64,000 bases of DNA from an uncultured Planctomycetales bacterium (GTDB lineage: Bacteria > Omnitrophota > Gorgyraeia > Gygaellales > Profunditerraquicolaceae), in NCBI GenBank assembly GCA_964645795.1, contig CAZYCL010000005.1:26006-90005 (forward strand), given 5' to 3'. The stretch's first letter is position 1, and the number at the start of each line of letters is the position of its first letter. This document shows positions 6,605 through 21,600 of the stretch, one piece after another. Made by a program: the position numbers and the translations under genes. The notes beneath the pieces were generated by a model. The model saw only the letters and a program-made list of their open reading frames with translations, searched no databases and was not told where the DNA came from.

Positions 6605-6612
6605 TTTAAAGC

Positions 6613-7398
6613 TTAAAGGCGCTTAAGTATTTCATCTTCCTTGCGGGAAAAAAGAAGGTAACCGAAGAACAGGCTGGCGAGGGAAAAAGAGGTGCATAGC
6701 AGCCACATCTCTACCCGGCCAAAAGCGCCTGCGTATAATATAGACCTGTAGATCTCCATGTAACAAGTTCCGGGGTTTAAGATTATTGCCGGCCGCCAGG
6801 CCTGCGGCACCGCCTCCAGAGGATAGAATACGGGCGTCACCCAGAACAAGAACATCAGCCCTACGTTTAGAAAATGCGCAAAATCCCTGAAATACACGTT
6901 GATCACCCCGAATAAGAATGCTATCCCGAGAGTAAACAAAAAATGCAGCAGAAGGATCAAGGGCAATAAAAAGAGGCTGGCGAGAACCTGGGGGTTAAAG
7001 ATCGCGAATATCGGGAGCATGAAAACCAGACCAAACAAAAAGTTTATGAATTGTGCGCAGGTCACGGAGAAGGGGATCGTCTCCCGGGGCAGAAGGAATT
7101 GATTCATTATTTCCGTATGGCGCTTAAACGATTGAGTGGCATCGCTTGCCACCCCGGAAAAAAAGAACCACGGCAGGAGGGCGCTGAGGATAAAAAGAGG
7201 GTAGCCCTTGATGTCGGTCTTCATTATTTGAGTAAATACAAAGCTCACCGCCAGCATTATAAAAAAAGGGTTGAGCACGCTCCAGAAGAACCCCAGGACT
7301 GACCCGGAGTACTTTTCCTTAAGGGACTTCAGAATCAACCCCCAGACCGCTTGCCGCCTGGAAATAATCAAACGAATCCTTTGTTTTAGCATAACCAA
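6613..7398 (-). CDS. wzm: ABC-2 type polysaccharide export permease (Wzm/TagG-like)
   Basis: 261 aa with six hydrophobic segments and the ABC-2 permease pattern, located 9 nt upstream of wzt. Confidence 0.7.
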   Translation of the reverse strand: MVMLKQRIRLIISRRQAVWGLILKSLKEKYSGSVLGFFWSVLNPFFIMLAVSFVFTQIMKTDIKGYPLFILSALLPWFFFSGVASDATQSFKRHTEIMNQFLLPRETIPFSVTCAQFINFLFGLVFMLPIFAIFNPQVLASLFLLPLILLLHFLFTLGIAFLFGVINVYFRDFAHFLNVGLMFLFWVTPVFYPLEAVPQAWRPAIILNPGTCYMEIYRSILYAGAFGRVEMWLLCTSFSLASLFFGYLLFSRKEDEILKRL

Positions 7399-7448
7399 AA
7401 GTGATTGTTAGCCTTTTTCTTGTGCTTAATGGCCATCGAGGAAGGCAA

Positions 7449-7476
7449 TTTATTATACCTCTATCGTCTCATAATT
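7449..7476 (-). promoter_or_regulatory. Putative sigma70-like promoter for wzm-wzt and the downstream radical SAM genes
   Basis: On the minus strand there is TTGAAT (plus 7471..7476), a 16-nt spacer, and TATAAT (plus 7449..7454). It lies in the 147-nt AT-rich gap between the SGNH gene stop (7546) and the wzm start (7398). Confidence 0.3.
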
Positions 7477-7545
7477 CAAGAGTAAGATGTCTTCTCTGGG
7501 GGCAGGCCGGGCACGCCGCAATATATATATTATTAAAGATAAAAG

Positions 7546-8571
7546 TTATTTTCGGGGAATTTTCGAAGCGAGCTTTTCGTAGACCGTTTCGGCGACAATC
7601 CGGTTACCGTAAGCACTAAGGTGCGGATCCGCCTTAAAGAATACGCCTGTTTTGTCCGAACAAGCCTTCTTCAGAGCAGGAAGAAGGTCAATATAGGCGA
7701 ACTTCGAGTTCTTAACGAGCTCGACCCAAGTTTCCCACGCATGCTGCCGGTCTTTTGTGCCTTGGACGAAATCCCGCGAAGGGATAAGTATAAAAATACA
7801 CTCTGCTTTGTTCTTCCTGCATATGCTCTCTATCGCATCAAACTGCCCCAGCGTAATCCTAAACGGCTCTTTGAACTCCAGGGGATGTAGGGCGGCGCCT
7901 GTTAAAGGAGTCTTGAACAACGGCCGCTTAAGCATCAAGGTAAAGAGCCGGCGTAACAGCGCGTAAGAACGCAGGTGCCTGTTTAAAAACAATCTGAATT
8001 GGATATTGCCTTTTATCTTATTCGATACCAGAAACCCGGCATCCTCCAAATAGGTTAGCCGTTCGCAGCCCAAGTCATCCCACCAGAACTGAACCAACAC
8101 CATATCGGGTCTCAGGCGGCCGCACTCCCGCTCCAAGAACTTCATCTCGTTATAAGTTGAGTAGCCTGGCACTCCCGCCTTAATTACCCTGATATTGCCT
8201 TTTGCAAAACTCAGCATCTTCTCTAAAAGGCTAAGGTATGTCTCTTCCAGCTCCACGCCTACGCCGAAAGCCAGTGAATCACCGATCCCCAGGAGCCTGA
8301 AGCCTGCCGGGTCTGCGCTATGGTCGCCGTCCCTCATGGCCATGGCGTTGGTATCGATGGATATGCTAAACTCCGGCTGTGAATATCTGCCTTTAAAATT
8401 TGCAGCCAGCGCATAACCATAATCATTGTTCCGGACAAAGTAGCCTTGGGGGAAGGCGTAATACGGCTGTTTCAGAATGAACCGTGCGGCAAATTCAAGA
8501 AGAACGAGGCTGACGATAATGACAAAAAAGACAAATACGAGGACCCTAAAGGGTTTTTTAACGCGGGGCAT
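7546..8571 (-). CDS. Membrane-anchored SGNH/GDSL hydrolase (polysaccharide esterase/acyltransferase-like)
   Basis: N-terminal TM helix. GDS motif in LGIGDSLAFG, a downstream block GVPGYST, and DPHLS (DxxH) near the C-terminus. Confidence 0.6.
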   Translation of the reverse strand: MPRVKKPFRVLVFVFFVIIVSLVLLEFAARFILKQPYYAFPQGYFVRNNDYGYALAANFKGRYSQPEFSISIDTNAMAMRDGDHSADPAGFRLLGIGDSLAFGVGVELEETYLSLLEKMLSFAKGNIRVIKAGVPGYSTYNEMKFLERECGRLRPDMVLVQFWWDDLGCERLTYLEDAGFLVSNKIKGNIQFRLFLNRHLRSYALLRRLFTLMLKRPLFKTPLTGAALHPLEFKEPFRITLGQFDAIESICRKNKAECIFILIPSRDFVQGTKDRQHAWETWVELVKNSKFAYIDLLPALKKACSDKTGVFFKADPHLSAYGNRIVAETVYEKLASKIPRK

Positions 8572-9629: not shown

Positions 9630-10187
9630 TCACATCTTCATCAATGCCAGCGTCTCCGAGCGGGTCTTTTCGTTCTCCTGGAAAACGCCCCTGACCACCG
9701 AAGTCACGGTAAGGGTCCCTGGCTTCTTTACTCCCCGCATGGACATGCACATATGTTCGGCTTCGATGACGACCATGCAACCTTGAGGCTTTAGCTTGCG
9801 CATAATTATCTCGGCTATCTGCGAGGTCAGCCTCTCCTGGACCTGGGGCCGCCTGGCCAGTATCTCGACTACACGCGCCAGCTTGCTTAACCCCGTTACC
9901 CTGCCCTGTTTGGGGATGTAGGCCACGTGGGCCTTGCCCAAGAACGGCAACAGGTGGTGTTCGCATATGCTGTAAAGCGGTATCCCTTTAAGAAGGATTA
10001 TCTCGTCGTGCTTCTGCTCCAGCACCACCTCAAGCTCTTTTTCGGGATCCCTGCCGATTCCGGAGAATATCTCCCCGCACATCTCGGCGACCCTGCGCGG
10101 AGTCTCCTTCAGGTCCTTTCTCTGCGGGTCCTCGCCTATTGCCTTGAGGATCTCTGCTACCGCTTTTGCGATCTTTGTCTTATCCAT
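9630..10187 (-). CDS. folE: GTP cyclohydrolase I
   Basis: 185 aa. Carries the ICEHHLLPF motif and matches FolE along the whole length. Confidence 0.85.
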
Positions 10188-10267
10188 TGGAGTTGTCGAT
10201 AATGCGTAATTTTGCGAATAGTTTATTATCTAACGAATACCCTGATTCTGCAATAAGTTTTTCTCGC

Positions 10268-11653
10268 TTATTTGCCTATGCAAAATCTGCCAAAGATCTT
10301 ATCCAGCAGCCCCTGCGTCAGGCTCTCTCCCGTGACCGTATCCAGGCTCAAAACCGCTTCTTTTATATCCTGGCAGACAAGCTCCGCAAAGAAACCTTGC
10401 TCCAGGCTTACCAACGCCTCCCGGATCAACCTGTCTGCCTTTTTAATCGGCTCAATATCCCTTATGCTGCTTAAGGTCGCCGATTCGCGCAAGAGGGGTC
10501 TTCCCTGACAGACAAGCCCTGTTATCGCCTCCTCCAAAGCCGCGATATTAAGCATCTTCTTTGCGCTAACGCAGACCGCCCTGTTGACAAACCCCTTTAA
10601 ATCTTGCGGCTTGACCCTCTGCTTTAAGTCGATCTTATTAATGACCGGTATCGTCCGTTCTTTTTTTAACCGCATAAGCCGCCGGTCCGCGTCCGTCAGC
10701 CTCCTGCTGCCGTCTAATACAAAAAGCACTATATCCGCCGAGGCAATGTGGTCCCGGGCGCGCTTAACCGATTTTTTCTCAACCGTATTACGCGGAGTTA
10801 TCAATCCGGCGGTATCAATGACCCTCAACGGAATACCCCGGACATCGATCATCTCTTCGATGCTATCCCTGGTGGTTCCGGCAACAGGGGTGACTATCGA
10901 ACGCTCCTGCTTAAGCAGGGCGTTTAAGAGCGAAGATTTCCCTACGTTGGGGCTACCGCATATCACGGCCTTAACACCCTCCCTGAATATCCTTGTTTTA
11001 CGGTGATCTTCGATAATGGCGCAGAGGCGACGGGATATCCGCTTAAGCCCTTCCTCAAGCTGCCCCGACCGCAACGCCTCTATGCCTTCTTCGGGGAAAT
11101 CTATATCTGCCTCTAGCGCTGAAAGGATATCCATTAACGACTCTCTTAGCCCGGATACCTCCCTTGACAGGCTGCCTCTTAATTGCCTCAGGCCTATATC
11201 AAGAGCGGCTTCGCTTTTTGCGCGTATAATATCCAGGACCGCCTCTGCCTGCGCCAGGTCTATCCTGCCGTTCAAGAATGCTCTCTTGGTAAACTCTCCC
11301 GGTTCGGCAAGCCTGGCGCCGCGAGCCAGGACCAGCTCAAGCACGGCTTTTACTGCTGCCAGGCCGCCGTGGCAGTTTATCTCCACCACGTCTTCCCGGG
11401 TATAGGAGCGGGGCTGACGCATCACCGAAAGGATCACTTCATCGATCAGCCTGGAACCGTCTTTGATCCAGCCATAACGCAGGGTGTAACTCTTAAACTG
11501 CGACGGCCGCCCACTTCCCTTGGAATAAAATATCTTATCGGCGATAGAAAGCGCCTCCCTGCCGCTCAAGCGCACGATCCCGATGCCGGATTCGCCCATG
11601 GCGGTAGCTATGGCTGCTATCGTATCTGCGGATATTCCGGGTTTAGAAGTCAT
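10268..11653 (-). CDS. mnmE: tRNA modification GTPase MnmE (TrmE)
   Basis: N-terminus DTIAAIATAMGESGIGIVRLSG, G-domain GSPNVGKSSLLNAL, C-terminal CIGK. I placed the start at the internal ATG 11653, which forms an ATGA overlap with the upstream gene's stop (the track start is 11677). Confidence 0.85.
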   Translation of the reverse strand: MTSKPGISADTIAAIATAMGESGIGIVRLSGREALSIADKIFYSKGSGRPSQFKSYTLRYGWIKDGSRLIDEVILSVMRQPRSYTREDVVEINCHGGLAAVKAVLELVLARGARLAEPGEFTKRAFLNGRIDLAQAEAVLDIIRAKSEAALDIGLRQLRGSLSREVSGLRESLMDILSALEADIDFPEEGIEALRSGQLEEGLKRISRRLCAIIEDHRKTRIFREGVKAVICGSPNVGKSSLLNALLKQERSIVTPVAGTTRDSIEEMIDVRGIPLRVIDTAGLITPRNTVEKKSVKRARDHIASADIVLFVLDGSRRLTDADRRLMRLKKERTIPVINKIDLKQRVKPQDLKGFVNRAVCVSAKKMLNIAALEEAITGLVCQGRPLLRESATLSSIRDIEPIKKADRLIREALVSLEQGFFAELVCQDIKEAVLSLDTVTGESLTQGLLDKIFGRFCIGK

Positions 11654-12501
11654 ATTCCCTGTTTTTCGCACCACCAATGCTCCTCCACATCGCGGCAGAT
11701 GCTGGCTATATGATAGCCTTTGGAGTTAAGAAAATCCCGTACGTCTGCCAGCGTGTGCCCAAAATACTTCTCATAGAAGTAATCATGGATGCTGACAAGC
11801 AGGGCCGGCGAGACCTCTTCCAAAAACCTCCCTGCCCCGCGCAACACTAAAAACTCCGCCCCCTCCACGTCGCACTTTATGAGGCCAGGACGGCCCCTGA
11901 AACCAGCGCAACAGAACAGCCCGTCGATACGGTATATGGGGATACCGGGATCCCTGTTTTTATCCTGAAGGTTAAGTTGTTTCTCGTGATATAAGTCGGC
12001 CTTTGGGCCGAGCTTGAATATTTCTCTTCTTGTCTCTTCCAGAGCAGAATCGAGGCTCGCCGCAGTCGGGTGAGTATCAGAAATAAACCCCCGTAACAGA
12101 TGCAGCCTGTTTCTGTCGGCGAAGCGGCAGGCTTCTTTAGTTATGCTCAGATTTTTGACGTCCGAATCTACGGCGTAGACCTGGACGCTGGGCTGGGCAA
12201 ATAAAGCGGCGATTGAATAAATACCCTTATTGCATCCGATATCGATAAAAAAAGAGCCGGGGTGGCCTCTAAACCAGGCAACTGCCTTACTGATAGGCTC
12301 TTTTTCATACTCCTGCCAACCCCAGCTGGCTATGGCCGGCGGCACCGAAACAAAGACGTTGCCCGGCAACCTGATCTTTATCCTGTCTCCGCAAAGACGC
12401 ACAAGAAAATAGTATATGGCGCGTAAAATTCCCCATAACCAAGACCTCTTTTCCCAGAATTTCGCGTGCCTTATTTTTTTTGCTATCTCATAAAAGAACA
12501 T
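11650..12501 (-). CDS. FkbM-family SAM-dependent methyltransferase
   Basis: FIDIGCNKGIYS and IKCDVEGAEFLVLRG motifs, characteristic of the FkbM family. Confidence 0.7.
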   Translation of the reverse strand: MFFYEIAKKIRHAKFWEKRSWLWGILRAIYYFLVRLCGDRIKIRLPGNVFVSVPPAIASWGWQEYEKEPISKAVAWFRGHPGSFFIDIGCNKGIYSIAALFAQPSVQVYAVDSDVKNLSITKEACRFADRNRLHLLRGFISDTHPTAASLDSALEETRREIFKLGPKADLYHEKQLNLQDKNRDPGIPIYRIDGLFCCAGFRGRPGLIKCDVEGAEFLVLRGAGRFLEEVSPALLVSIHDYFYEKYFGHTLADVRDFLNSKGYHIASICRDVEEHWWCEKQGI

Positions 12502-13865
12502 TGCTTTACTCCTGCAAGATATGAGCGCACCTGACCGACAAGAAACAGTGAACCGGCTACCAAAACAAGGCTTTCTCTGCGGCAGCCCCGGATTGCCCGT
12601 CTTGTCGCCGCACGACAGTTGGGCTCAGCCTCGGCCTTAGTGCCCTTGAAGAACCCGGTCAACGCCTGCGGATGGGCAGCGCGCGGATTGTCTGCCATCG
12701 TAAGGATCACTCTGTCTGCGAATTTACCCAGGCACTCACAGATCCCCCTGATATCCTTATCTTTGGAGATACCCAGCAGTAGAATTATCTTTTTGCCCGG
12801 GAAGTTATCCCTTATGGCTTTTACCAAAGACTGGCTTGAGGCCTGGTTCTGTGCACCGTCGAGTATAATCAGGGGTTTGCGGCAGACGACTTCGCACCTG
12901 CCCGGCCAGACAGTATTATATAGGCCCCTTCTTACACGATCAACTCCGATATCGAATCCGTAAAAACCCAGGGCATCCACGGCGGATACCGCACAGGCGG
13001 CGTTGGTCAACTGATGGTCTCCTAATAATCTTATTCTCATGCGAGGGTAGCTTTTAAATACGCCCTTGATCATAAATCTTCCGGTTTTATCTTTTTTAAT
13101 GGCTGCCTCTTTGCCAACGACAAATAACCTGCCTGCGCAATCCTTGGCCCTCTTGCTGATGACCTTAAGCGCCTGTGTTTTTTGCGGCGCACTTATCACC
13201 AGGGGCCTCGCTGGAAAGCCCGCATCAAAAGCCTTAATGATGCCGGCTTTTTCAAATGCGATCCTGGATAATGTTTTCCCGAGCTTCTGCGTATGCTCCA
13301 GGCTTATCGGGGTTATCACGCTTACCAGCGGCCGGACGACATTGGTGGCATCAAGCCTGCCTCCCATGCCCGTCTCAAGGACTATGAAATCGGGCTTCTT
13401 CTCCTGAAAATACAAAAAAGCCAGCGCCGTATAGGCCTCAAAGAAAGAAATGGCGCCGTATCTTGAGTGCCTGAAAAAGGCTTCTGCTTTCTTGCGCAGC
13501 CCGCAGACCAGGCGCGCAATATCGCATCTGGTTATCATGCCCTGGAAGTCTCGCGGCCCTCGTACCTGGCCCTGTTTAGAAGTCAGTATCCTTATCCTTT
13601 CCCGAAAATCAACCAGATGAGGAGAAGTGTACAGGCCGACAGAATATCCGGCTTCTTTGAGGATGTGAGCGATAAAGGCGCAGGTTGAGCCTTTGCCTTT
13701 TGAGCCGGCAACGTGTATAAAGCGCAATCCTTCCTGAGGATTACCGACGGTCTCCAGGAAGTCGTAAAACCGCTCAAGCTTCAGAGATTCCTTATAGGAA
13801 TATTCCGGGATTTTTTCGTAATTAACGAGGGAGTTAAGGTAATCAGCCGCTTCTTGGTAGGTCAT
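12483..13865 (-). CDS. folC: Folylpolyglutamate synthase / dihydrofolate synthase
   Basis: Mur-ligase P-loop HVAGSKGKGST and FolC-like overall order. Confidence 0.8.
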   Translation of the reverse strand: MTYQEAADYLNSLVNYEKIPEYSYKESLKLERFYDFLETVGNPQEGLRFIHVAGSKGKGSTCAFIAHILKEAGYSVGLYTSPHLVDFRERIRILTSKQGQVRGPRDFQGMITRCDIARLVCGLRKKAEAFFRHSRYGAISFFEAYTALAFLYFQEKKPDFIVLETGMGGRLDATNVVRPLVSVITPISLEHTQKLGKTLSRIAFEKAGIIKAFDAGFPARPLVISAPQKTQALKVISKRAKDCAGRLFVVGKEAAIKKDKTGRFMIKGVFKSYPRMRIRLLGDHQLTNAACAVSAVDALGFYGFDIGVDRVRRGLYNTVWPGRCEVVCRKPLIILDGAQNQASSQSLVKAIRDNFPGKKIILLLGISKDKDIRGICECLGKFADRVILTMADNPRAAHPQALTGFFKGTKAEAEPNCRAATRRAIRGCRRESLVLVAGSLFLVGQVRSYLAGVKQCSFMR

Positions 13866-13965
13866 CGTCCCGTGTGCTAGTAAATTGGGGACGGTTTTCG
13901 TTAAGAGAGCCGTCCCCGATTGCTGGTTTTTCTTTGGGTTAACACGCTTTAGCTGGCGGGCGCAT

Positions 13966-15519
13966 TTAATGCCTGAAGTGGCGCATGCCGGTAAAGACCA
14001 TGCTGATCTTATGTTTATCCGCGGCTTTTATTATCGCTTCATCGGCGATAGAGCCGCCGGGCTGGATTATCGCTTTTATACCGTTCTTTGCGGCTAGTTT
14101 TATCGCATCTTCCTTGGGGAAAAACGCGTCCGATGCCAAAACTGCACCCTTAGCCAGCCCCGCGGATTTTTTGGTGGAAATATACACCGAATCAACGCGC
14201 GACATCTGTCCGGCGCCTATGCCTACCGTTCTTGTTCCCCTTGCAAGGACTATGGCGTTGGATTTTACGTGCTTTGCTATTTTCCAGGCAAAGATAAGAC
14301 TGGCCATCTCCTTCTTAGTGGGCCTTTTCTTTGTCACGACCTTAAGCTTTTCCTTATCCAGCAGCGCCAGGTCCTTGTCCTGGACAAGCAGTCCTGCCGA
14401 TACGCGTTTAAGATCCATCTCATCTGCTGCCGAGAAATCCGGACACTCAAGCAACCGCAGGTTTTTCTTTTCCTTGAATAGGCTTAAGGCCTCCTTCTCA
14501 AAGGCAGGCGCTATGACGCACTCTAAGAACCCGCTTTTAAAAACGGCCCTAGCGGTATCCAGGTCCATCTTCCTGTTTAAAGCCACTATCCCGCCGAAGG
14601 CGGAAAGCTTATCGCACTCCCATGCTTTGACATATGCCTTAGCTAAACTTTTACCTTCGGCCGCTCCGCAAGGATTGTTGTGTTTTACGACGACGGCTGC
14701 GGGAAGCTCAAACTCCTTTACCAACTCCATGGCGGAGTTCAGGTCCAGTATGTTATTAAAAGACAATTCCTTGCCCTGCAGCTGTTTCAGATTTATTATT
14801 CCGCCAGCTGCCCCAGTCTGGCGGTAAAAAGCGGCCTTCTGATGGGGGTTTTCTCCGTAACGCAGCTCCTGCAGCTTTTCAAACGCCAGGCTCAACCTTT
14901 GCGGCAACATACTCCCCTTTTGGCCGTGGAAGCACCTAGCCAGATATTCATTTATAGCCGCGTCATAGCTGGCGGTATGGGCGAATGCCTTGACCGCAAG
15001 AGAGCGCATGAACGACCTTGAGAGAGCGCCGCCGCTTTTTTCCAGCTCATCCAAAACCCGGCAATAATCGGCCGGATCGCAAACTACCGCCACATCCTTA
15101 TGGTTTTTCGCCGCGGACCTGAGCATCGACGGCCCCCCGATATCGATGTTTTCAATGACATCCTCTATCCCGACCCCCGGCTTCTGCGTAGTTTTTTCGA
15201 AAGGATAGAGATTGACCACTACCATATCGATAAGGCCTATGCCGTGCTCCTGCAGGGTCTTTATATGCTGCGGATTATCCCTTAAGGCAAGCAACCCCGC
15301 GTGGATAGCCGGGTGCAGGGTCTTTACCCTGCCATCCAGCATCTCGGGAAAACCGGTGTAGCCGGAGACTTCCTTTACCGGTATCGAGTTATCCTGCAGG
15401 AGCTTTGCCGTGCCGCCGGTGCTGATTATCTCGATACCGTATCCGCAGAGCCGGCGGACAAACTCCGAAACTCCGCTCTTATCCGAAACACTAACGAGCG
15501 CCCGCTTTATCTGGACCAT
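13966..15519 (-). CDS. purH: Bifunctional AICAR transformylase / IMP cyclohydrolase
   Basis: 517 aa. MGS-like N-terminus (ALVSVSDKSGV...IISTGGTAK) and an AICARFT domain. Confidence 0.9.
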   Translation of the reverse strand: MVQIKRALVSVSDKSGVSEFVRRLCGYGIEIISTGGTAKLLQDNSIPVKEVSGYTGFPEMLDGRVKTLHPAIHAGLLALRDNPQHIKTLQEHGIGLIDMVVVNLYPFEKTTQKPGVGIEDVIENIDIGGPSMLRSAAKNHKDVAVVCDPADYCRVLDELEKSGGALSRSFMRSLAVKAFAHTASYDAAINEYLARCFHGQKGSMLPQRLSLAFEKLQELRYGENPHQKAAFYRQTGAAGGIINLKQLQGKELSFNNILDLNSAMELVKEFELPAAVVVKHNNPCGAAEGKSLAKAYVKAWECDKLSAFGGIVALNRKMDLDTARAVFKSGFLECVIAPAFEKEALSLFKEKKNLRLLECPDFSAADEMDLKRVSAGLLVQDKDLALLDKEKLKVVTKKRPTKKEMASLIFAWKIAKHVKSNAIVLARGTRTVGIGAGQMSRVDSVYISTKKSAGLAKGAVLASDAFFPKEDAIKLAAKNGIKAIIQPGGSIADEAIIKAADKHKISMVFTGMRHFRH

Positions 15520-15534
15520 AACACCCTTTCATGC

Positions 15535-16236
15535 TTACTTATTGAACCTGAAGTTTACCAGATCCGCATCCTGCATCACGTAATCCTTTTGCTCAAGACG
15601 CAGCTTTCCTGCTTGTTTTGCCTGGTTCTCTCCTCCGGCTTTGATAAAATCGTCGAAGGCGATGATCTCGGCACGAATAAAACCGCGCTGTATGTCGGAA
15701 TGTATGACGCCCGCCGCCTCCCAGGCAGTGGTTCCCTTCCTGATGAGCCAGGCGCGGTTCTCTTTATCGCCTACCGTCAAGAAGCTTATGTATCCTGCTT
15801 CCTTTACTGCCCTGGCAAGCAGCGCATCCGGGTCCTCGGGCCCTGCGGAGTTTACCGTCACCACCGGTTTATTCGTCCAAAATCCCGCCCCCGAGAGAAG
15901 GCGTAACTGGTCGCCGGAAACGCCTGCACTAAAAACCGTGGCCTCCTTCTCCAAAGCCTGTTTTATCCTGCCCAGGACCGTTTTCTCCTCTTGGTTCTCG
16001 CAGCGTGAAAGCCTGGTCTCGACAAACTCAAGGTCGCGCAAGATAAGGTCCGCAAGGTATTCCTGGGCCACAATTATCGCATCCGCCTCCATCGCCCCGT
16101 CTTCGCCGACGAGCTCCACCTGCGCATAGCTCTTTTTTTTAGCCGAAACCAGCTTGTCCGCCTGGTCCAGACGCGCATCTTTTATGTTCTTTTTCCCCGG
16201 CCCTAGCTCCGGCACCGAAATAACGCTGATTTTCAT
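15535..16236 (-). CDS. YchF-like protein lacking the N-terminal P-loop (coiled-coil + TGS domains retained)
   Basis: Aligns to E. coli YchF from about residue 40 onward (DARLDQADKLV vs DPRLDQLAEIV). The C-terminal TGS domain matches strongly (RAWLIRKGTTAWEAAGVIHSDIQRGFIRAEII...KDYVMQDADLVNFRFN). There is no GxxxxGKS motif, and only 15 nt separate it from the upstream gene, so no room exists for a G1 motif. Confidence 0.6.
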   Translation of the reverse strand: MKISVISVPELGPGKKNIKDARLDQADKLVSAKKKSYAQVELVGEDGAMEADAIIVAQEYLADLILRDLEFVETRLSRCENQEEKTVLGRIKQALEKEATVFSAGVSGDQLRLLSGAGFWTNKPVVTVNSAGPEDPDALLARAVKEAGYISFLTVGDKENRAWLIRKGTTAWEAAGVIHSDIQRGFIRAEIIAFDDFIKAGGENQAKQAGKLRLEQKDYVMQDADLVNFRFNK

Positions 16237-16251
16237 TTATGCTTTCCTTTT

Positions 16252-18204
16252 TTACTCTTCCTGCTTCTTAGTGGCCTGGTACTGGGCCATGATCCCCGAG
16301 GCGATCTTGTGCGGGACCTCCTCGTAATGCGAAAAGCGCATGGTGTAGAAGCCGCGGCCCCCGGTAAGCGAGCGCAGGTCATTGGCGTATTTGAACATCT
16401 CCGCTAAGGGTATCTGGGCTTTGACTATCTGGGTCTTGCCTTTGATATCCATACCCATGATCCTGCCCCGTCGCGAGTTTATGTCTCCCGATATGCCTCC
16501 CAGGCAATCTTCGGGGATAGAAACCTCCGCATCCATTATCGGCTCAAGCAAGACCGGGCCGGCCTCGGTTATCGCCTTCCTCAAGGCCATGGCCCCGGCT
16601 ATCTGAAAGGCCATATCGGAGGAATCTACCTCGTGGTAAGAGCCGTCATATAATACTACCTTAAGGTCCTCTATCGGGTAACCTGCCACCGCGCCCTCGA
16701 GGCAGGCCTGACGTACGCCCTTTTCTACCGAAGGAACATAGTTCTTGGGGATCGCTCCGCCGAATATTTTTTCCACAAACTCAAAACCTTTTCCTCTTTC
16801 AAGCGGCGCAACCTCTATCCAGACATCCCCATACTGACCCCTGCCTCCTGATTGCCGCTTGAACTTGCCCTGGACCTTTACGGATTTGGTGATCGTCTCT
16901 TTGTAGGACACCTTGGGCGTGCCCAGCTCCACGTCCACGTTAAATCTTTTTTTCATCCTGCCCACCATGACATCCAGATGCAAGTCGCCCAGCCCCGATA
17001 TAATTAACTCCTTTGTCTGGGCATCGTGCCTTACGCTGAACGTGTGGTCTTCCGCGGCCAGCTTATGCAGGGCCTGGGAGATCTTTTCTTCGTCCTCCCG
17101 GGATTTAGGCTTTACGGATACCGATATCGCCGCCTCCGGAAATGTTATCGGAGGCAATATTACGGGGTTCTTTTCATCGGCAAGCGTATCGCAGACCGCC
17201 GTCTCTTTAAGCTTTGCTATCGCCACTATATCCCCGCAAGATGCCGAATCCAGCGGCCGTTGCTCTTTACCCTGCAGGATATAGATCTGGCCGATCCTTT
17301 CCTTGGCCTTTTTACTTACGTTATAAAAACCGGTGTTTGATGCAAGGCTGCCTGAAAAAACCCTCAAAAAGGTAAGTTGTCCGACATAGGGATCGGATAT
17401 GTTCTTGAAAACAAAGGCCGAAAAGGGGGCGTCCGGGGAAACCGCGATCTCTTTTTTCTCTTCGGGTTTTGCGGGATTAGCCGCCTCGATCTTTTCTCTT
17501 AAAAGCGGCGAAGGAAGGTAGTTGACAATGCCCTCCAGAAGCTCGGGGATGCCTTTATCGGTGAGCGCCGAACCTGAAAGCACAGGAAAGAGCTTGCGTT
17601 TAAATACCGCCTGGGCCATGCCGCTGGATATCTCATCCAGAGACAGCTTTAGCACCTCGAGGTATTTTTCAAGCAGCTTATCGTCGCTTTCGGCTATCGC
17701 TTCTATCAAAAGCGGGTCTTCCAGCGAGTTTATCACTATGCAGTTCTTGGAAAACCTGCTCTTGAGCTCAGCCAGCACCTTATTGGTATCCGTGCCGTCC
17801 TTATCAAGCTTATTGATGAATATCATGCAAGGGACGCCCGCTTCTTCAAGCAGGTCCCAGGCGCGCTCTGTGCCAACCTCGATGCCCCCTGCCGCATCCA
17901 CTACCAGGACCGCCGCATCCACGGCCCGGATCCCGGCGATCACTTCGCCGAAGAAGTCGGCGTAACCGGGGGTGTCTATCATCTGGATCCTGTGGCCCTT
18001 GTAATCGCAGTAAAGAAGGCTTAGGTTTATCGAGCTCTTTCTTTCTATCTCATCAAAGCTGTAGTCGCTTGTCGTCGTGCCGTCTTCAACGCGGCCCTTT
18101 CGGGTGGTGGATTTACAGGCGCTAAGCAGGCTTTCGGCGAGGGTAGTCTTGCCGGATTGGGCGTGTCCCAGAAGAATGAAATTACGCTTGTTCGTGATAT
18201 CCAT
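16252..18204 (-). CDS. Elongation factor G family GTPase (EF-G2-like paralog)
   Basis: G1 LLGHAQSGKTTLAESLL (the EF-G2 / ribosomal-protection-like variant of AHIDAGKTT), DTPG, NKLD. 650 aa with EF-G domains II-V. AGGAG RBS 10 nt upstream. Confidence 0.75.
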   Translation of the reverse strand: MDITNKRNFILLGHAQSGKTTLAESLLSACKSTTRKGRVEDGTTTSDYSFDEIERKSSINLSLLYCDYKGHRIQMIDTPGYADFFGEVIAGIRAVDAAVLVVDAAGGIEVGTERAWDLLEEAGVPCMIFINKLDKDGTDTNKVLAELKSRFSKNCIVINSLEDPLLIEAIAESDDKLLEKYLEVLKLSLDEISSGMAQAVFKRKLFPVLSGSALTDKGIPELLEGIVNYLPSPLLREKIEAANPAKPEEKKEIAVSPDAPFSAFVFKNISDPYVGQLTFLRVFSGSLASNTGFYNVSKKAKERIGQIYILQGKEQRPLDSASCGDIVAIAKLKETAVCDTLADEKNPVILPPITFPEAAISVSVKPKSREDEEKISQALHKLAAEDHTFSVRHDAQTKELIISGLGDLHLDVMVGRMKKRFNVDVELGTPKVSYKETITKSVKVQGKFKRQSGGRGQYGDVWIEVAPLERGKGFEFVEKIFGGAIPKNYVPSVEKGVRQACLEGAVAGYPIEDLKVVLYDGSYHEVDSSDMAFQIAGAMALRKAITEAGPVLLEPIMDAEVSIPEDCLGGISGDINSRRGRIMGMDIKGKTQIVKAQIPLAEMFKYANDLRSLTGGRGFYTMRFSHYEEVPHKIASGIMAQYQATKKQEE

Positions 18205-18295: not shown

Positions 18296-18324
18296 ATTAT
18301 ATAACAGCTGGAAAGGCCGGTCAA
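18296..18324 (-). promoter_or_regulatory. Putative strong sigma70-like promoter upstream of the EF-G2-like gene
   Basis: On the minus strand: TTGACC (plus 18319..18324), a 17-nt spacer, TATAAT (plus 18296..18301). It is about 90 nt upstream of ATG 18204. Confidence 0.4.
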
Positions 18325-18355: not shown

Positions 18356-19528
18356 TTACTCCAGATAAGCGTAGATCTTGCCTTTGAAGTTACGCAGGAC
18401 GTACTTGCCTTTTGCCTGGGAAAGGATATAGTTGGGCCCCACCGGTATCTTGCCGCCTCCGCCGGGACCGTCGATGACGTAAGTGGGCACGGCATAACCC
18501 GAGGTGTGACCCCGTAGCTTCTCCATTATATTAATGCCCGTGGCCACCGGCGTGCGGAAGTGTTGCGTGCCGCGCACAGGGTCGCACTGGTATATATAAT
18601 AGGGCCTGACCCTTATCTGCAGCAGCTCCTGCATCAGCCTTTTCATGATATACGGACGGTCGTTTATGCCTTTAAGCAGCACTGTCTGGCTGCCCAGGGG
18701 GAACCCGGAATCAGAGAGCATGTCGCAGGCGATCTTGCATCTTTTGGTTATCTCTTTGGGGTGATTAAAGTGTATGCTGATCCAGATAGGCGAGTATTTT
18801 TTGAGCATGCTCACCAGCTTATCGGTAATGCGTTGCGGCATGGTTACCGGCACGCGCGTGCCTATCCTTAAGAACTCTATATGCGGCACGGAGCGGAGCT
18901 TTTCGATGAGGCCCTCTATCTCTTCGTCCTCTAGAACAAAGGGGTCTCCTCCGGAAATAAGCACGTCTCTTATCTTACGGTTTGATTTTAGGTATTCAAT
19001 GGCTGCGTCAAAACGGCAAGCAGAGTTGGTTTCCTGGTGGTCTCCCACGAGCCTGCGTCTTGTGCAGTGACGGCAGTACAGAGCGCAGTGCTCGGTTGCC
19101 AATAGCAGGACCCTGTCCGGATAACGGTGCACCAGGTGCGGGGCCGGAGAATCCCTGTCTTCGGCGCAAGGGTCAACCATCTCGTGAGGGCCGACTACAG
19201 ACTCGCTTACCACGGGGACCGCCTGGCGTCGAAATGGGCAGCTTGGGTCATCCGGGTCCATAAGCGTGGCCCAATAAGGGGTAATGGCCATGGAAAGCCT
19301 GCCGCTGGCTTTCTTTATCCCCTCTTCTTCGTCTTTGGTAAGATTTATGATCCGGGCGAGATCATCCCTTGTGCGGATCCTGTGTTTAAGCTGCCAATGC
19401 CAATCTTCCCAGTCCAGGGGGTTGACCTCTTTGAACAGCTCGATCTGCTGATAATCCTGAGGTCTGGGCGCCTTTTTTGTGACCTCCTGCACCGGCTTCT
19501 GATTGTCTGCGGCTATAGTATAGCTCAA
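18356..19528 (-). CDS. KamA-family radical SAM aminomutase (lysine 2,3-aminomutase-like)
   Basis: CALYCRHCTRRR (CxxxCxxC), C-terminal YVIDGPGGGGKIPV, 390 aa. Its start overlaps the upstream gene's stop (19525/19528). Confidence 0.75.
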   Translation of the reverse strand: MSYTIAADNQKPVQEVTKKAPRPQDYQQIELFKEVNPLDWEDWHWQLKHRIRTRDDLARIINLTKDEEEGIKKASGRLSMAITPYWATLMDPDDPSCPFRRQAVPVVSESVVGPHEMVDPCAEDRDSPAPHLVHRYPDRVLLLATEHCALYCRHCTRRRLVGDHQETNSACRFDAAIEYLKSNRKIRDVLISGGDPFVLEDEEIEGLIEKLRSVPHIEFLRIGTRVPVTMPQRITDKLVSMLKKYSPIWISIHFNHPKEITKRCKIACDMLSDSGFPLGSQTVLLKGINDRPYIMKRLMQELLQIRVRPYYIYQCDPVRGTQHFRTPVATGINIMEKLRGHTSGYAVPTYVIDGPGGGGKIPVGPNYILSQAKGKYVLRNFKGKIYAYLE

Positions 19529-20529
19529 TTTATCCCCTTTCTACGCTTAGAAGCGCTAAGTAAAATAGCCTCAATAAGGTCTTCGTACTTCATCCCGGCG
19601 GCATAAGCCATGAGCGGGAAGTTGGATTCGCGGGGGTTGAGCCCCGGCAAAGGGTTTATCTCCAAAACGAACGGTGTGCCTTCGTTATTAAGGCGGATAT
19701 CGGTGCGGGAGATATCGAAGCAGCCGACGGCATGGTGGGTCTTAAGAGCGGTCTCTTTAACCCTGGCCTCCGACTGTTTATCGAGCCTGGCCGGACAATA
19801 AAAAGTGGGGTTAAGCCCCATCTCCTGGTTGCCCTGGAACTCTTTCATCCTCCAGGAATAAAAGAACTCTCCGCTATCCTTGCAGCCGGAAAAATCTATC
19901 TCCAGTATCGGCAGGATCACGGTCTTAGCGTTCTCCAGGATCCCCACGGTCAACTCTTTTCCCTCGATGAACTCCTCTACCAGCGCTTCCTGTTTATACT
20001 GCTGGAGTATGCTCCCGACTCTGGTGCGCAGTTCTTCTTCTTCGTAGACAACGTTTACCTTGTTGATCCCTTTGGCTGAACCTTCACGGTTAGGTTTCAC
20101 GATGAGCGGGAACTTCAATTGTTTGTCCAGCTGGTCGGTGATCGAGGTAAAAAGCTGAAAGCGCGGAGTAGGGATGCCCTCGGCAATAAGGATCTTTTTT
20201 GTCAGGGCCTTGTTCAGGGCCAGGGCGAGAGAAAACGTGTCTGAGCCCGTATAAGGTATCCCCATATAATCAAGAAACGCCGGTATCTCTGATTCGCGCA
20301 ACCTGCCGGTATTGCCTTCCGCGATGTTAAACACTATGTCTACGGGATTTTTTCTAAAGTAGGAAAAAATATTCGGGTATTCGACGTCGATCGCCTCGAC
20401 TGAATGGCCCTTGGACTGGAGGGCATTAATTATGGCGTTTACCGTTTCCGGGGAATCGCATTCGGAAAAATAATCGGGGGGCTTGGATTCGTCTTTTTTC
20501 TTAAGGTTGTAAGTCAGGGCTACCTTCAT
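19525..20529 (-). CDS. D-alanine--D-alanine ligase family ATP-grasp ligase
   Basis: 334 aa. Ddl-like three-domain order. C-terminal FVLEINPLPGL...AAGM resembles Ddl EVNTLPGMT...AGM. Confidence 0.65.
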   Translation of the reverse strand: MKVALTYNLKKKDESKPPDYFSECDSPETVNAIINALQSKGHSVEAIDVEYPNIFSYFRKNPVDIVFNIAEGNTGRLRESEIPAFLDYMGIPYTGSDTFSLALALNKALTKKILIAEGIPTPRFQLFTSITDQLDKQLKFPLIVKPNREGSAKGINKVNVVYEEEELRTRVGSILQQYKQEALVEEFIEGKELTVGILENAKTVILPILEIDFSGCKDSGEFFYSWRMKEFQGNQEMGLNPTFYCPARLDKQSEARVKETALKTHHAVGCFDISRTDIRLNNEGTPFVLEINPLPGLNPRESNFPLMAYAAGMKYEDLIEAILLSASKRRKGIN

Positions 20530-21519
20530 CTAATTTAGATTGTGCCTCTTCATTGCCGCCTGGATGATTTTGCCGATCATCTGTTCATAGGAAATGCCTG
20601 TCGCCTGGGAGAGCAGCATGAATACGTCTTCGGTTGAAAGCGAAGGCAGGGGGTTTATCTCCAGCACATAAGGCCTGCCTTCCTTATCCACCCTGAAATC
20701 AACCCTGCCGAAGTCGCGGCATTCAACCGCCCTGTATGTCTTTAAGGCCAGGTCGCTGAGCTCCTCTTTAAGGTCGGCACTGATGTGTGCCGGACATATA
20801 TACTCAAGCCTGTCCGAGGTGATGCGCGCGAAGGTATAAAATTTATCGTTAAGCTTGAGCCTTCCGTCGATCTTGATCTGCACTACCGGCAACACCTCCG
20901 GCTCCTCATTGCCCACCACCGCTACCGTAAACTCCTGCCCCGAAACAAACTCTTCGACTAGCGCCGGCTGCTTGTAGACGCTGACCACGTATTCCACCTG
21001 TTTTTTCAGCTCCTCAAAGTTTTCTACCCGGGAATTCTCGGTCAGCCCCTTGGAGGAACCCTCGCAGCGCGGCTTGACGATCAAAGGATATGAACAGTGA
21101 TCGGTATTGGTCAATTCATGCAGGTTTTTTATCTCGAAGAATTTTGGGGTGGGGATGCCTTCGGCCAGGAATATTTTCTTGGCTATGAGCTTATCCAGCG
21201 TCAGCCCGAGGGTAAGGGCGTCTGAGCCTACGAAGGGGATCCCTGCGACTTCAAGCAGGATCGGTATTTGGGACTCCCTATTCCTGCCGCTCAGGCCCTC
21301 GGAGATATTAAAAACGATATCGACGTTCAGCGACTCCCATTTTTCAAGCACCTTAAAGACATTGCCGATCTTCTTTACTTTAAATCCGTTGGCTTCAATC
21401 GCGTCGGCGATGACCTGTATGGTGCTGGGGTGATCAAACTCGGCGTTGGCATCAACGGGATCGTTTTCCTTGAACTGATAATCTGTCTTTAAATCGTAGG
21501 TGAGCCCGACTGTTTTCAT
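20530..21519 (-). CDS. D-alanine--D-alanine ligase family ATP-grasp ligase (paralog)
   Basis: 329 aa. Similar to the neighbour (YVLEINPLPSL). Its stop abuts the next gene's ATG (20530/20529). Confidence 0.65.
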   Translation of the reverse strand: MKTVGLTYDLKTDYQFKENDPVDANAEFDHPSTIQVIADAIEANGFKVKKIGNVFKVLEKWESLNVDIVFNISEGLSGRNRESQIPILLEVAGIPFVGSDALTLGLTLDKLIAKKIFLAEGIPTPKFFEIKNLHELTNTDHCSYPLIVKPRCEGSSKGLTENSRVENFEELKKQVEYVVSVYKQPALVEEFVSGQEFTVAVVGNEEPEVLPVVQIKIDGRLKLNDKFYTFARITSDRLEYICPAHISADLKEELSDLALKTYRAVECRDFGRVDFRVDKEGRPYVLEINPLPSLSTEDVFMLLSQATGISYEQMIGKIIQAAMKRHNLN

Positions 21520-21570
21520 TTTATTAATTTATATTTATATATGTTTAGCGCGCAGCCTGTGCGCAGGATT

Positions 21571-21600
21571 AAAAAAAAGGGCTCTTTGAATGCAGAGCCC
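21571..21600 (-). terminator. Rho-independent terminator downstream of the GT2 gene at 21686..22735
   Basis: On the minus strand: GGGCTCTGCATTCAAAGAGCCC followed by TTTTTTTT. The plus strand shows A8 at 21571..21578 and the stem GGGCTCT/AGAGCCC at 21579..21600. Confidence 0.55.

Follow-up and report, generated by a model that had tools for sequence, protein, structure and literature searches.

What would a bacterium make with a KamA-family aminomutase whose gene directly follows those of two ATP-grasp ligases resembling D-alanine-D-alanine ligase (Ddl)? Three such genes, here called AG1, AG2 and KamA, lie on the minus strand of the window analyzed in this work, a 64,000-nucleotide stretch of an Omnitrophota contig. 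The reading that we favor, with a probability of roughly 0.5, is that of a housekeeping Omnitrophota operon for making β-lysine and, in a next step, building it into a small amide or peptide.

Layout and distribution of the operon

The operon begins with AG1 (20530..21519, 329 aa), continues with AG2 (19525..20529, 334 aa) and ends with KamA (18356..19528, 390 aa), which has a TTG start. The AG1 stop codon TAG (20532-20530) is followed without a gap by the AG2 ATG at 20529, and the KamA TTG (19528-19526) runs into the AG2 stop codon TGA (19527-19525), the two reading frames sharing 4 nt. A GGGGA Shine-Dalgarno motif for KamA, read from the sequence (19533..19537, minus strand), is embedded in the 3′ end of AG2, 4 nt before the TTG; ahead of AG1, inspection of the sequence revealed no recognizable motif of this kind. 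Between AG1 and the upstream GT2 gene there is a hairpin resembling an intrinsic terminator (GGGCTCT...AGAGCCC, T8 tail; 21570..21600, minus strand), which would close the GT2 gene and mark the 5′ boundary of the three-gene unit. On the other side, a sigma-70 promoter match (TTGACC-17-TATAAT, 11/12; 18296..18324, minus strand) lies between KamA and an EF-G gene; this near-consensus predicted promoter probably serves the EF-G gene and would mark the 3′ boundary. No terminator was found 3′ of KamA by inspection of the sequence.

Intergenic distances were surveyed at 80 Omnitrophota loci, 74 of them scored for AG1-AG2 and 65 for AG2-KamA. The gap between AG1 and AG2 is 0 nt at 36 of the 74 loci and lies between -4 and +2 nt at 56, while AG2 and KamA have a spacing of -4 nt at 37 of 65. 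Because these tight gaps and overlaps recur across Omnitrophota loci, the arrangement is not a matter of chance. The initial annotation had described the genes as abutting or overlapping, with a terminator upstream and a promoter downstream, and had taken them for one unit; the minus-strand ORFs and their junctions, the hairpin, the promoter match and the spacing across the 80 loci all agree with this description of a compact unit.

A search for the kamA-ddl-ddl neighborhood, which that annotation had proposed, recovered it phylum-wide in Omnitrophota and its AG1-KamA core in Elusimicrobiota as well. An AG1-type ligase adjoins KamA at all of the informative species-level Omnitrophota loci (69/69), and the deep-branching lineages L086, L102 and L103 keep this pairing. 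AG2 is present at 64 of the 69 loci and missing from 5; it is absent in L061, L065, L071, L078, L082, L086 and L102. Two sequential ligases, as originally envisaged, are therefore the common state but not an obligatory one, as several lineages lack AG2. Median identities across Omnitrophota (AG1 73%, AG2 71%, KamA 77%) are near that of EF-G (73%) and above those of PurH (65%) and FolC (51%), which indicates that the three genes are under strong purifying selection of the kind usual for core functions.

Of 8 distinct Elusimicrobiota loci, 4 have an orthologous KamA (58-59% identity) within 0.45-4 kb after an AG1-type ligase (47%). At the remaining loci, about half, the 7-10 kb around the ligase contain no KamA, so the function of the ligase may not need β-lysine. 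No KamA was found near the ligases of other subfamilies at the sampled loci L085 and L087. What is new here is the presence of the operon throughout the phylum Omnitrophota and the recurrence of its AG1-KamA core at about half of the Elusimicrobiota loci.

The aminomutase and its partner ligases

Judging by its sequence, KamA is a lysine 2,3-aminomutase (LAM)-type radical SAM/PLP enzyme. Its placement in the KamA family by the initial annotation holds (TIGR00238, 359.2 bits against a cut-off of 199.2), and it falls narrowly short of the AblA equivalog model (TIGR03820, 514.4 bits, cut-off 525.4). EpmB was considered as an identity and ruled out: KamA scores 246.2 bits on TIGR03821, where 369.3 are needed, and its LAM/AblA-type score (514) is far higher. 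When KamA is aligned to the Clostridium subterminale LAM (PDB 2A5H; E=1.7e-144), the Fe-S cluster motif CxxxCxxC is found as C148-x3-C152-x2-C155 (CALYCRHC; kept in 74/74 loci), the PLP-binding Lys337 as K360 (72/72 loci), and the carboxylate-binding Arg134 as R157 (72-74 loci). Asp293 and Asp330, which specify lysine, correspond to D316 and D353 and are likewise kept in 72-74 loci. The specificity check suggested at the outset thus finds the lysine pair and not the Lys/Asn of glutamate-type enzymes, so β-lysine is the expected product of KamA.

The protein differs from LAM at its C terminus, where it stops at the position matching LAM residue 367; the zinc region is missing, and the LAM_C domain is matched at positions 1-56 of 127 only. 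The inter-subunit zinc site of LAM (2A5H) is presumably formed by Cys268 together with Cys375/377/380 of the C-terminal domain, and Cys268 aligns with Arg291 of KamA. PLP biosynthesis has been reported missing or incomplete in Omnitrophota (PMC10066038), so KamA would depend on PLP supplied in some other way, a point that counts against the favored reading.

The two ligases carry the Pfam domain Dala_Dala_lig_C (AG1, E=2.6e-41), in line with the initial description of two Ddl-like ATP-grasp ligases, yet both fall below the cut-offs of the Ddl models and have altered substrate residues. AG1 reaches 188.7 bits on NF002378 (cut-off 243) and 170 on TIGR01205 (cut-off 245.65), and AG2 reaches 204.7 and 174, respectively. 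Against the same Ddl cut-off of 243, orthologs from Elusimicrobiota and a deep lineage score 174-183 bits and P0150, a related protein from Bacillota, 197. An AlphaFold2 model of AG1 (pLDDT 90.7) finds Ddl or Van ligases as all of its top 50 matches in the PDB, with TM-scores of 0.70-0.81 (query length), and identity to the top matches is 22-26%.

The equivalents of Ddl Lys144, Glu180, Arg255, Asp257, Glu270 and Asn272, which serve ATP, Mg and catalysis, are invariant in AG1 and AG2. At the substrate sites (E. coli DdlB numbering), compared by sequence alignment in which the loops align poorly and are unstable in one large alignment, AG1 has Glu74 for His63, Ile233 for Tyr216 and Asp298/Val299 for Ser281/Leu282; AG2 keeps Ser281, has Asn at 282 and Glu at 63, and its omega loop is longer by a 7-residue insertion. 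The Glu in place of His63 is a family-wide feature, found also in members without KamA linkage. The C-terminal loop of the AG1 type reads NPLPSLSTEDVF and that of the AG2 type NPLPGLNPRESNFP. AG1 and AG2 are 40% identical and fall into separate subfamilies by loop motif and BLAST; they appear to be old paralogs with different specificity loops. Model scores and substrate residues together support the view that both are Ddl-like enzymes but probably not Ddl.

Genomic context, proposed pathway and alternative readings

The conserved neighbors of the operon are EF-G, a YchF-like gene, PurH, FolC, MnmE and FolE, and in other lineages the context is ProS-RimP-NusA-IF2 or ThrS-IF3-L35. The downstream gene had been labeled EF-G2-like, but it fails the EF-G2 model (578 bits, cut-off 890) and passes that for EF-G (670.9 bits, cut-off 659.4); a functional link to the operon, also raised earlier, is weak, since many loci have no EF-G at that position. 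Glycan clusters flank the block in the 64-kb window, those upstream lying beyond the terminator and not being conserved in deep lineages. None of the approximately 100 fetched loci is flanked by mur/dcw genes, so the murein context that would have suggested an ordinary cell-wall role is absent. The usual partners of β-lysine are missing too: no AblB-like GNAT acetyltransferase was found in the operon, nor in its flanks here or at L001 and L003, and tblastn with E. coli EF-P as the query returned no efp in the window or at any of the ~100 fetched loci, the range that it covered. The operon and its conserved flanks contain no NRPS genes and no β-lysine 5,6-aminomutase, 3,5-diaminohexanoate dehydrogenase, cleavage enzyme or ammonia lyase.

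In the pathway that we propose, KamA would convert L-lysine to 3,6-diaminohexanoate (β-lysine) using S-adenosylmethionine, a [4Fe-4S] cluster and PLP, as its conserved residues suggest. From the chemistry of its family, AG1 would form an acyl phosphate from a carboxylate, thereby activating it, and couple it to an amine, with β-lysine as one of the two partners. The predicted acidic pocket of AG1, in which His63 becomes Glu and Ser281, the holder of the D-Ala2 carboxylate in Ddl, becomes Asp, would fit a diamino, cationic substrate. AG2 may perform a second step, giving a three-part compound in most lineages; its Ser281 equivalent is retained, so the unit that it adds or accepts is probably an ordinary amino acid bearing a carboxylate, and since several lineages have AG1 and KamA alone, this step would be optional. 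The product would most likely be a cytoplasmic β-lysine-containing di- or tripeptide or short oligomer. A signaling peptide or a niche osmolyte is disfavored by the conservation of the operon in the company of housekeeping genes across the whole phylum, its freshwater and groundwater lineages included.

Conservation equal to that of EF-G is not obviously explained by a small free metabolite and would fit the recognition of a conserved macromolecule. We consider it unlikely that the ligases, one or both, attach KamA-made β-lysine to a protein (EF-P or a ribosomal protein), a peptidoglycan precursor or a surface glycan, a role like that of EpmA in gamma-proteobacteria or of D-aspartate ligase in enterococcal wall synthesis. 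The phylum-wide position among housekeeping and translation genes and the glycan clusters around the block speak for such a target, and modification of proteins or peptides by ATP-grasp enzymes has precedents in RimK, TTL, LysX and PGM1. The aminomutase, however, is of the LAM/AblA and not the EpmB type, efp is missing from the fetched loci, adjacency to EF-G is inconsistent, and known Ddl-type ligases are all small-molecule enzymes; a wall or glycan target is further disfavored by the lack of mur/dcw genes and by the terminator that separates the poorly conserved glycan genes from the operon. Very unlikely, in our view, is a cofactor as the target, with β-lysine or a β-lysyl peptide added to a folate-type carboxylate tail in the way that methanopterin and F420 have their tails lengthened by the ATP-grasp enzymes MptN and CofF. 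Folate genes do recur nearby: PurH, FolC, MnmE and FolE in this window, PabB and PabC between KamA and PurH-FolC in L102 and L103, the order AG-PHP-FolD in the Elusimicrobiota loci L090 and L097 (with MetH also near in L090), and ThyX two genes upstream in L101. This pattern was noticed post hoc and much of it is inherited synteny within one phylum; KamA is set apart from the downstream block by a strong promoter, other contexts have no folate genes, FolC is canonical (355.8 bits, cut-off 162.65), and we know of no β-lysine-containing folate. A more general proposal, which we rate as rather unlikely, is that the AG1-type ligase and KamA form an unrecognized housekeeping β-lysylation system of Omnitrophota and Elusimicrobiota with a conserved target (EF-P or another translation factor, a different ribosome-associated protein, or the tail of a folate-type cofactor), to which AG2 adds a second residue in most Omnitrophota. 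If this were true, β-lysine would be attached by an ATP-grasp enzyme and not by a tRNA-synthetase paralog.

It is also conceivable, if distinctly improbable, that AG1, AG2 or both are cell-wall dipeptide ligases forming D-Ala-D-Ala or a variant, linked to KamA through inherited gene order or through a β-lysine-containing wall dipeptide. The complete Ddl fold with its catalytic residues is compatible with this, as is the single-copy ligase gene in a housekeeping context in Elusimicrobiota, and COG/KO pipelines already name AG-type proteins D-alanine-D-alanine ligase (JGI product names). K01921 is stated to be present in 176/176 complete Omnitrophota genomes (10.64898/2026.06.07.730766, preprint), a count that, given this labeling, could rest on the AG genes. 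Set against these points are the scores of the tested members (174-205 bits where Ddl requires 243), the loss of Tyr216 and the Asp at the D-Ala2 carboxylate site in the AG1 type, the absence of a mur/dcw context at all of the ~100 loci (0 of ~100), and a translational coupling to KamA and recurrence in two phyla that chance order explains poorly. That KamA instead catalyzes the opening step of lysine fermentation or catabolism, with the ligases as functionally unrelated neighbors, is scarcely credible: fermentation of lysine by anaerobes does begin with LAM-type KamA enzymes, and Omnitrophota are fermenters, but the other steps of the kamA-kamDE-kdd-kce-kal cluster were found neither in the operon nor in its conserved flanks, most species have overlapping start and stop codons between KamA and the ligase genes, and a second phylum shows the pairing again.

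Comparison with known systems

For the favored reading, in which β-lysine is built into a small amide or peptide, several known systems offer partial parallels. Known β-lysine routes had been said to lack Ddl-like ligases, and indeed the literature that we searched describes no combination of KamA with one; finding the two together points to an undescribed β-lysine-containing compound or modification. The biosynthesis of streptothricin, viomycin and blasticidin S pairs a 2,3-aminomutase with enzymes that form amides, and there too a KamA-family aminomutase supplies the β-amino acid for the amide bond. Those pathways are encoded in Streptomyces clusters with NRPS or specialized ligases, whereas the genes described here belong to the core of a phylum and, unlike antibiotic clusters, are accompanied by no tailoring, resistance or export genes.

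The proposed sequential action of two different ligases has a counterpart, likened here by description, in the mycosporine-like amino acid pathway, where MysC (ATP-grasp) and then MysD (Ddl-like) add two amino-acid units to one molecule; its core substrate is 4-deoxygadusol, the genes form a secondary-metabolite cluster, and no KamA is involved. Carnosine synthase (ATPGD1/CARNS1), an ATP-grasp enzyme that couples β-alanine and histidine into a small cytoplasmic dipeptide, sets a precedent for ATP-grasp activation of a β-amino acid. It is likened to AG1 and AG2 through the ATP-grasp superfamily alone, being eukaryotic, of another domain architecture and without an aminomutase partner. The Ddl and Van ligases share with AG1 and AG2 the three-domain fold (TM ~0.8), the ATP, Mg and catalytic residues, and, toward the N terminus, an acidic residue at the Glu15 position or close to it, so an acyl-phosphate mechanism is expected. 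They differ in that identity is 22-31% and that the AG ligases carry a 12-residue N-terminal insertion, Glu for His63, Ile or Val for Tyr216 and, in AG1, Asp-Val for Ser281-Leu282.

In the EpmB/EpmA (YjeK/PoxA) system, as proposed here, a KamA-family aminomutase feeds β-lysine to a dedicated ATP-dependent ligating enzyme with a housekeeping role; that enzyme is a lysyl-tRNA-synthetase paralog and not an ATP-grasp ligase, while our KamA misses the EpmB cut-off and has no efp nearby. The closest parallel to the proposed pathway is AblA/AblB, which makes N-ε-acetyl-β-lysine in methanogens and some bacteria, and AblA is the best model of KamA. In both cases β-lysine would be made and then capped or derivatized by an enzyme of the same operon. 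The Abl route uses an acetyltransferase where the operon described here has one or two ATP-dependent Ddl-fold ligases, and the present genes are phylum-wide in largely non-halophilic hosts and encode a KamA without the C-terminal region. We infer by analogy that the operon is a functional counterpart of the AblA/AblB route in which an ATP-grasp ligase would replace the acetyltransferase.

Operon structure and phylogenetic distribution

Three consecutive minus-strand genes in the ORF listing encode two Ddl-like ATP-grasp ligases, AG1 (21519..20530, 329 aa) and AG2 (20529..19525, 334 aa), followed by the lysine 2,3-aminomutase-type enzyme KamA (19528..18356, 390 aa, TTG start). The initial annotation had placed these genes in one translationally coupled operon and suggested a beta-amino-acid peptide as its product, and the junctions read from the sequence bear out the coupling: the AG2 ATG directly follows the AG1 stop codon TAG (20532-20530), and the KamA start, with a ribosome-binding motif GGGGA 4 nt upstream, overlaps the AG2 stop TGA by 4 nt. 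The proposed upstream terminator and downstream promoter were also recovered in a consensus scan. A minus-strand hairpin with a T8 tail (21600-21579) separates AG1 from the glycosyltransferase gene upstream of it, and KamA is followed, ahead of the next gene, by an 11/12 sigma-70 match (TTGACC-17-TATAAT, 18324-18296); the scan found no terminator after KamA. The junctions are conserved across loci, with an AG1-to-AG2 gap of 0 nt in 36 of 74 and an AG2-to-KamA spacing of -4 nt in 37 of 65.

The nearest homologs are from Candidatus Omnitrophota MAGs. Among the best 80 loci from a scan with one genome per species, the full AG1-AG2-KamA set is present in 64, and 5 have AG1-KamA but no AG2; in the remaining 11 the contig ends within about 1 kb, so that a ligase of the AG1 type (the Ddl-like subfamily with Asp-Val in its C-terminal loop) adjoins KamA in 69 of 69 informative Omnitrophota loci. 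The operon is strongly conserved: median identities to the window proteins in Omnitrophota loci are 77% for KamA, 73% for AG1 and 71% for AG2, and 73% for EF-G, 65% for PurH, 51% for FolC and 48% for MnmE, which are encoded nearby. Three deep-branching relatives keep the ligase-KamA pairing ahead of the same PurH-FolC block, with one AG1-type ligase in two of these loci (L086, L102) and both AG1 and AG2 in the third (L103).

AG1-type orthologs sharing the Asp-Val loop (about 47-50% identity) are widely distributed in Elusimicrobiota as well, and an orthologous KamA (58-59% identity) lies 0.45-4 kb after the ligase in loci L084/L091, L093, L094 and L096; none was found within 7-10 kb of the ligase in L088, L090, L095 and L097/L100. 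Near the sampled members of other subfamilies, L085 (a fused double ligase beside an S58/DmpA peptidase) and L087 (a Bacillota protein), KamA was absent. It was also absent near the ligase at L089 and L101, although the L101 ligase (P0139) has the AG1-type loop. The linkage to KamA is thus particular to the AG1-type subfamily and is found in two phyla; no other evidence speaks as strongly for a functional connection.

Several extra genes accompany the Elusimicrobiota operons (L096 2475-2702 and 3827-4066; L084 12618-12866, 14097-14330 and 14456-15559; L093 5408-5635). An HTH_17 DNA-binding gene (75-82 aa) stands between ligase and KamA, and KamA is followed by a lysine-rich protein of 75-79 aa with two repeats (GYLYxxDKAGDVSRAKMA) that has no Pfam family; a DUF1015 protein comes next in L084 and probably also in L093. 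No family matches were obtained for the small proteins beside the Elusimicrobiota operon or for the unknown genes of L102 and L103. The lysine-rich protein might act as a regulator or serve as a substrate.

Active-site residues of the aminomutase and the ligases

KamA scores 359 bits against the KamA family model (cut-off 199). Among the specific models, that of the AblA-type lysine 2,3-aminomutase fits it best (514.4 bits, below the cut-off of 525.4), and it falls further below the cut-offs for glutamate aminomutase (473 vs 650) and arginine aminomutase (408 vs 600). The initial annotation had allowed that it might be an EpmB, which does not fit a score of 246 bits against a cut-off of 369. 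The solved Clostridium subterminale lysine 2,3-aminomutase (LAM; 2A5H) aligns with KamA end to end (E=1.7e-144), and this alignment places the Fe-S motif at C148/C152/C155, the Arg134 equivalent at R157 and the PLP lysine (Lys337) at K360. The two aspartates that specify lysine, Asp293 and Asp330, had been singled out as the substrate-diagnostic positions, and both are present as D316 and D353, making KamA lysine type; all these residues are kept in 72-74 related loci. Beta-lysine is therefore the expected product, as judged from these residues. KamA ends where LAM has residue 367, and it has Arg at the Cys268 position; it would therefore lack the inter-subunit zinc site of LAM, which involves Cys268 and the C-terminal region. 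The PLP-binding lysine is kept in all 72 loci examined despite reports that PLP biosynthesis in Omnitrophota is missing or incomplete (PMC10066038; PMC10407285), implying PLP salvage or an unrecognised pathway.

The description of both ligases as Ddl-like holds. Each contains a Dala_Dala_lig_C ATP-grasp domain and scores below the Ddl model cut-off of 243 (AG1 188.7 bits, AG2 204.7 bits), with 22-31% identity to solved Ddl enzymes; the top PDB matches of an AlphaFold2 model of AG1 (pLDDT 90.7) are all Ddl or Van ligases, with a TM of about 0.8. Because the large-family alignment (2748 columns) was too gappy to trust, residue signatures were taken from motif extraction and a 12-sequence alignment. 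The ATP, Mg and catalytic residues (equivalents of Lys144, Glu180, Arg255, Asp257, Glu270 and Asn272) are invariant. The substrate subsites differ from those of Ddl (E. coli DdlB numbering): the His63 position is Glu across the whole ligase family, and in AG1-type proteins Tyr216 is replaced by Ile or Val, and Ser281-Leu282, which holds the D-Ala2 carboxylate in Ddl, by Asp-Val. AG2 keeps the Ser281 equivalent, with an R-E-S-N loop and an omega loop enlarged by a 7-residue insertion. By motif extraction and BLAST against 150 family representatives, the two ligases fall into different subfamilies, and they are old paralogs; a recent tandem duplication was rejected in view of their 40% identity, separate subfamilies and different loops.

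The wider Ddl-like family comprises 1221 clusters at E below 1e-30. Many members, among representatives P0124-P0270, combine two fused ATP-grasp units in one protein of 650-720 aa, and the loops of the two halves are distinct; at L085 (8001-11432) such a fusion is followed by a Peptidase_S58 gene of the DmpA/beta-aminopeptidase family. JGI/KO-type pipelines name AG1-type proteins (P0004, P0006 and others) 'D-alanine-D-alanine ligase' despite missed NCBIfam Ddl cut-offs, and peptidoglycan completeness claims for these phyla that rest on K01921 may consequently count AG1-type genes; the supplement of the Omnitrophota complete-genome preprint contains no per-KO counts.

Genomic surroundings

Downstream of KamA lie genes for a short EF-G, a YchF-like protein, PurH, FolC, an FkbM methyltransferase, MnmE and FolE. 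The initial annotation had called the first two EF-G2-like and P-loop-less YchF-like. The latter description stands: the YchF-like protein (15535-16236, minus strand, 233 aa) matches YchF only in its last 90 residues, a TGS-like C-terminal domain, and its N-terminus (MKISVISVPELGPGKKNIKD) has no P-loop. The former does not, as the protein fails the EF-G2 model; the short EF-G (16252-18204, minus strand, 650 aa) matches EF-G models in two stretches, lacks about 45 model positions before residue 166 and passes TIGR00484 narrowly (670.9 vs 659.4). Only some species have it at this place, between KamA and the YchF-like gene, and the latter lies beside PurH in most Omnitrophota loci (30-66% identity).

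The folate and one-carbon genes PurH, FolC, MnmE and FolE span 9630-15519 on the minus strand, with the FkbM-family methyltransferase (11650-12501, minus strand) between FolC and MnmE, a position at which it was not seen in L001 or L003. Two deep lineages have PabB and PabC as insertions ahead of PurH-FolC (L102 5238-11071; L103 11530-17251). FolD lies downstream of the ligase in the Elusimicrobiota lineage L090/L097, together with MetH in L090, and ThyX lies near the ligase in another taxon (L101 5686-6462). This clustering may reflect inherited synteny or be a functional hint.

Glycan/O-antigen-like clusters flank the housekeeping block, upstream of the operon (21686-64000) and beyond FolE (2316-8571), and are not kept in deep lineages. 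Besides many GT2/GT4 glycosyltransferases, they encode SPASM and B12-binding radical SAM enzymes (HpnJ-like at 49615-51096) and an ABC exporter of the Wzm/Wzt type whose ATPase has 946 aa; two further large proteins (45315-46709, 53427-55556) matched no family. The region at 44-57 kb was considered as a dcw cluster, a reading rejected because its GT2/GT4 and radical SAM genes make it a glycan cluster. No GNAT, NRPS, lysine-fermentation or mur/dcw genes are present in the operon or in its conserved flanks, and tblastn with E. coli EF-P found no efp in the window or any fetched locus. Acetyltransferase and NRPS partners, as in known beta-lysine routes, are thus lacking here, and the murein context raised as a counter-case was not found at these loci.

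Proposed pathway and relation to known systems

The best reading of these sequence data is that the operon derivatises beta-lysine by means of Ddl-fold ATP-grasp ligases. KamA would supply beta-lysine, and the AG1-type ligase, whose more acidic pocket suits a diamino substrate, would form an amide with beta-lysine as one partner through an acyl phosphate, as ATP-grasp enzymes commonly do. AG2, given its different loop and retained carboxylate-binding Ser, would carry out an optional second step, probably adding or accepting an ordinary amino acid. We put at about one in two the probability that beta-lysine ends up in a small peptide or oligomer serving a housekeeping role.

Transfer of beta-lysine onto a macromolecule would accord with the high conservation of the operon proteins, but we consider it rather unlikely in view of the LAM-type KamA, the lack of efp in the fetched loci and the fact that Ddl enzymes have a small-molecule ancestry; a link to EF-P itself was set aside on the tblastn result for these loci and because KamA is not of the EpmB type. 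That the ligases are true wall dipeptide ligases is doubtful. The pipeline labels favour it, and the reported universal K01921 in Omnitrophota may rest on these very proteins, but all Ddl model cut-offs are missed, the subsite residues differ and a mur/dcw context is absent around the operon, and ordinary Ddl was rejected as the primary reading on the same grounds. Modification of a cofactor tail seems improbable, and the repeated presence of folate genes near the ligase, in several independent contexts, is a lead only; lysine catabolism we regard as highly improbable. An osmolyte role is made less likely by the missing acetyltransferase and by the phylum-wide occurrence of the genes, groundwater and freshwater MAGs included. 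Omnitrophota make spermidine, and their functional spermidine and ornithine decarboxylase enzymes are encoded and expressed (PMC10407285), which weakens the idea of a polyamine substitute.

Full-text literature searches, amidoligase neighbourhoods included, returned no description of a KamA and ATP-grasp operon, or of such a function in Omnitrophota or Elusimicrobiota. Derivatisation of beta-lysine by Ddl-fold ATP-grasp ligases would be a further route for this amino acid, core to one whole uncultured phylum and recurring in a second. If correct, it would bring a new metabolite or modification to Omnitrophota and Elusimicrobiota, a function for a large mis-annotated 'D-Ala-D-Ala ligase' subfamily that may now inflate peptidoglycan-pathway calls in metagenomes, and beta-amino-acid peptide ligases for the biocatalysis toolbox. 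The hypothesis is open to direct test by heterologous expression of three small genes.

To our knowledge, the known fates of beta-lysine are few: an osmolyte by acetylation, attachment to EF-P, antibiotics via NRPS-type enzymes, and fermentation. By the features examined, the operon does not belong to the Ddl, EpmAB or AblAB systems. It resembles AblA/AblB in that production of beta-lysine would be followed by its derivatisation through an operon partner, which is an acetyltransferase there and an ATP-grasp ligase here. BlsI of blasticidin biosynthesis may also be an ATP-grasp ligase. Carnosine synthase offers a parallel as an ATP-grasp enzyme acting on a beta-amino acid, and the arrangement of two ligases has its counterpart in MysC/MysD, a pair of ATP-grasp/Ddl-like ligases that act in sequence.
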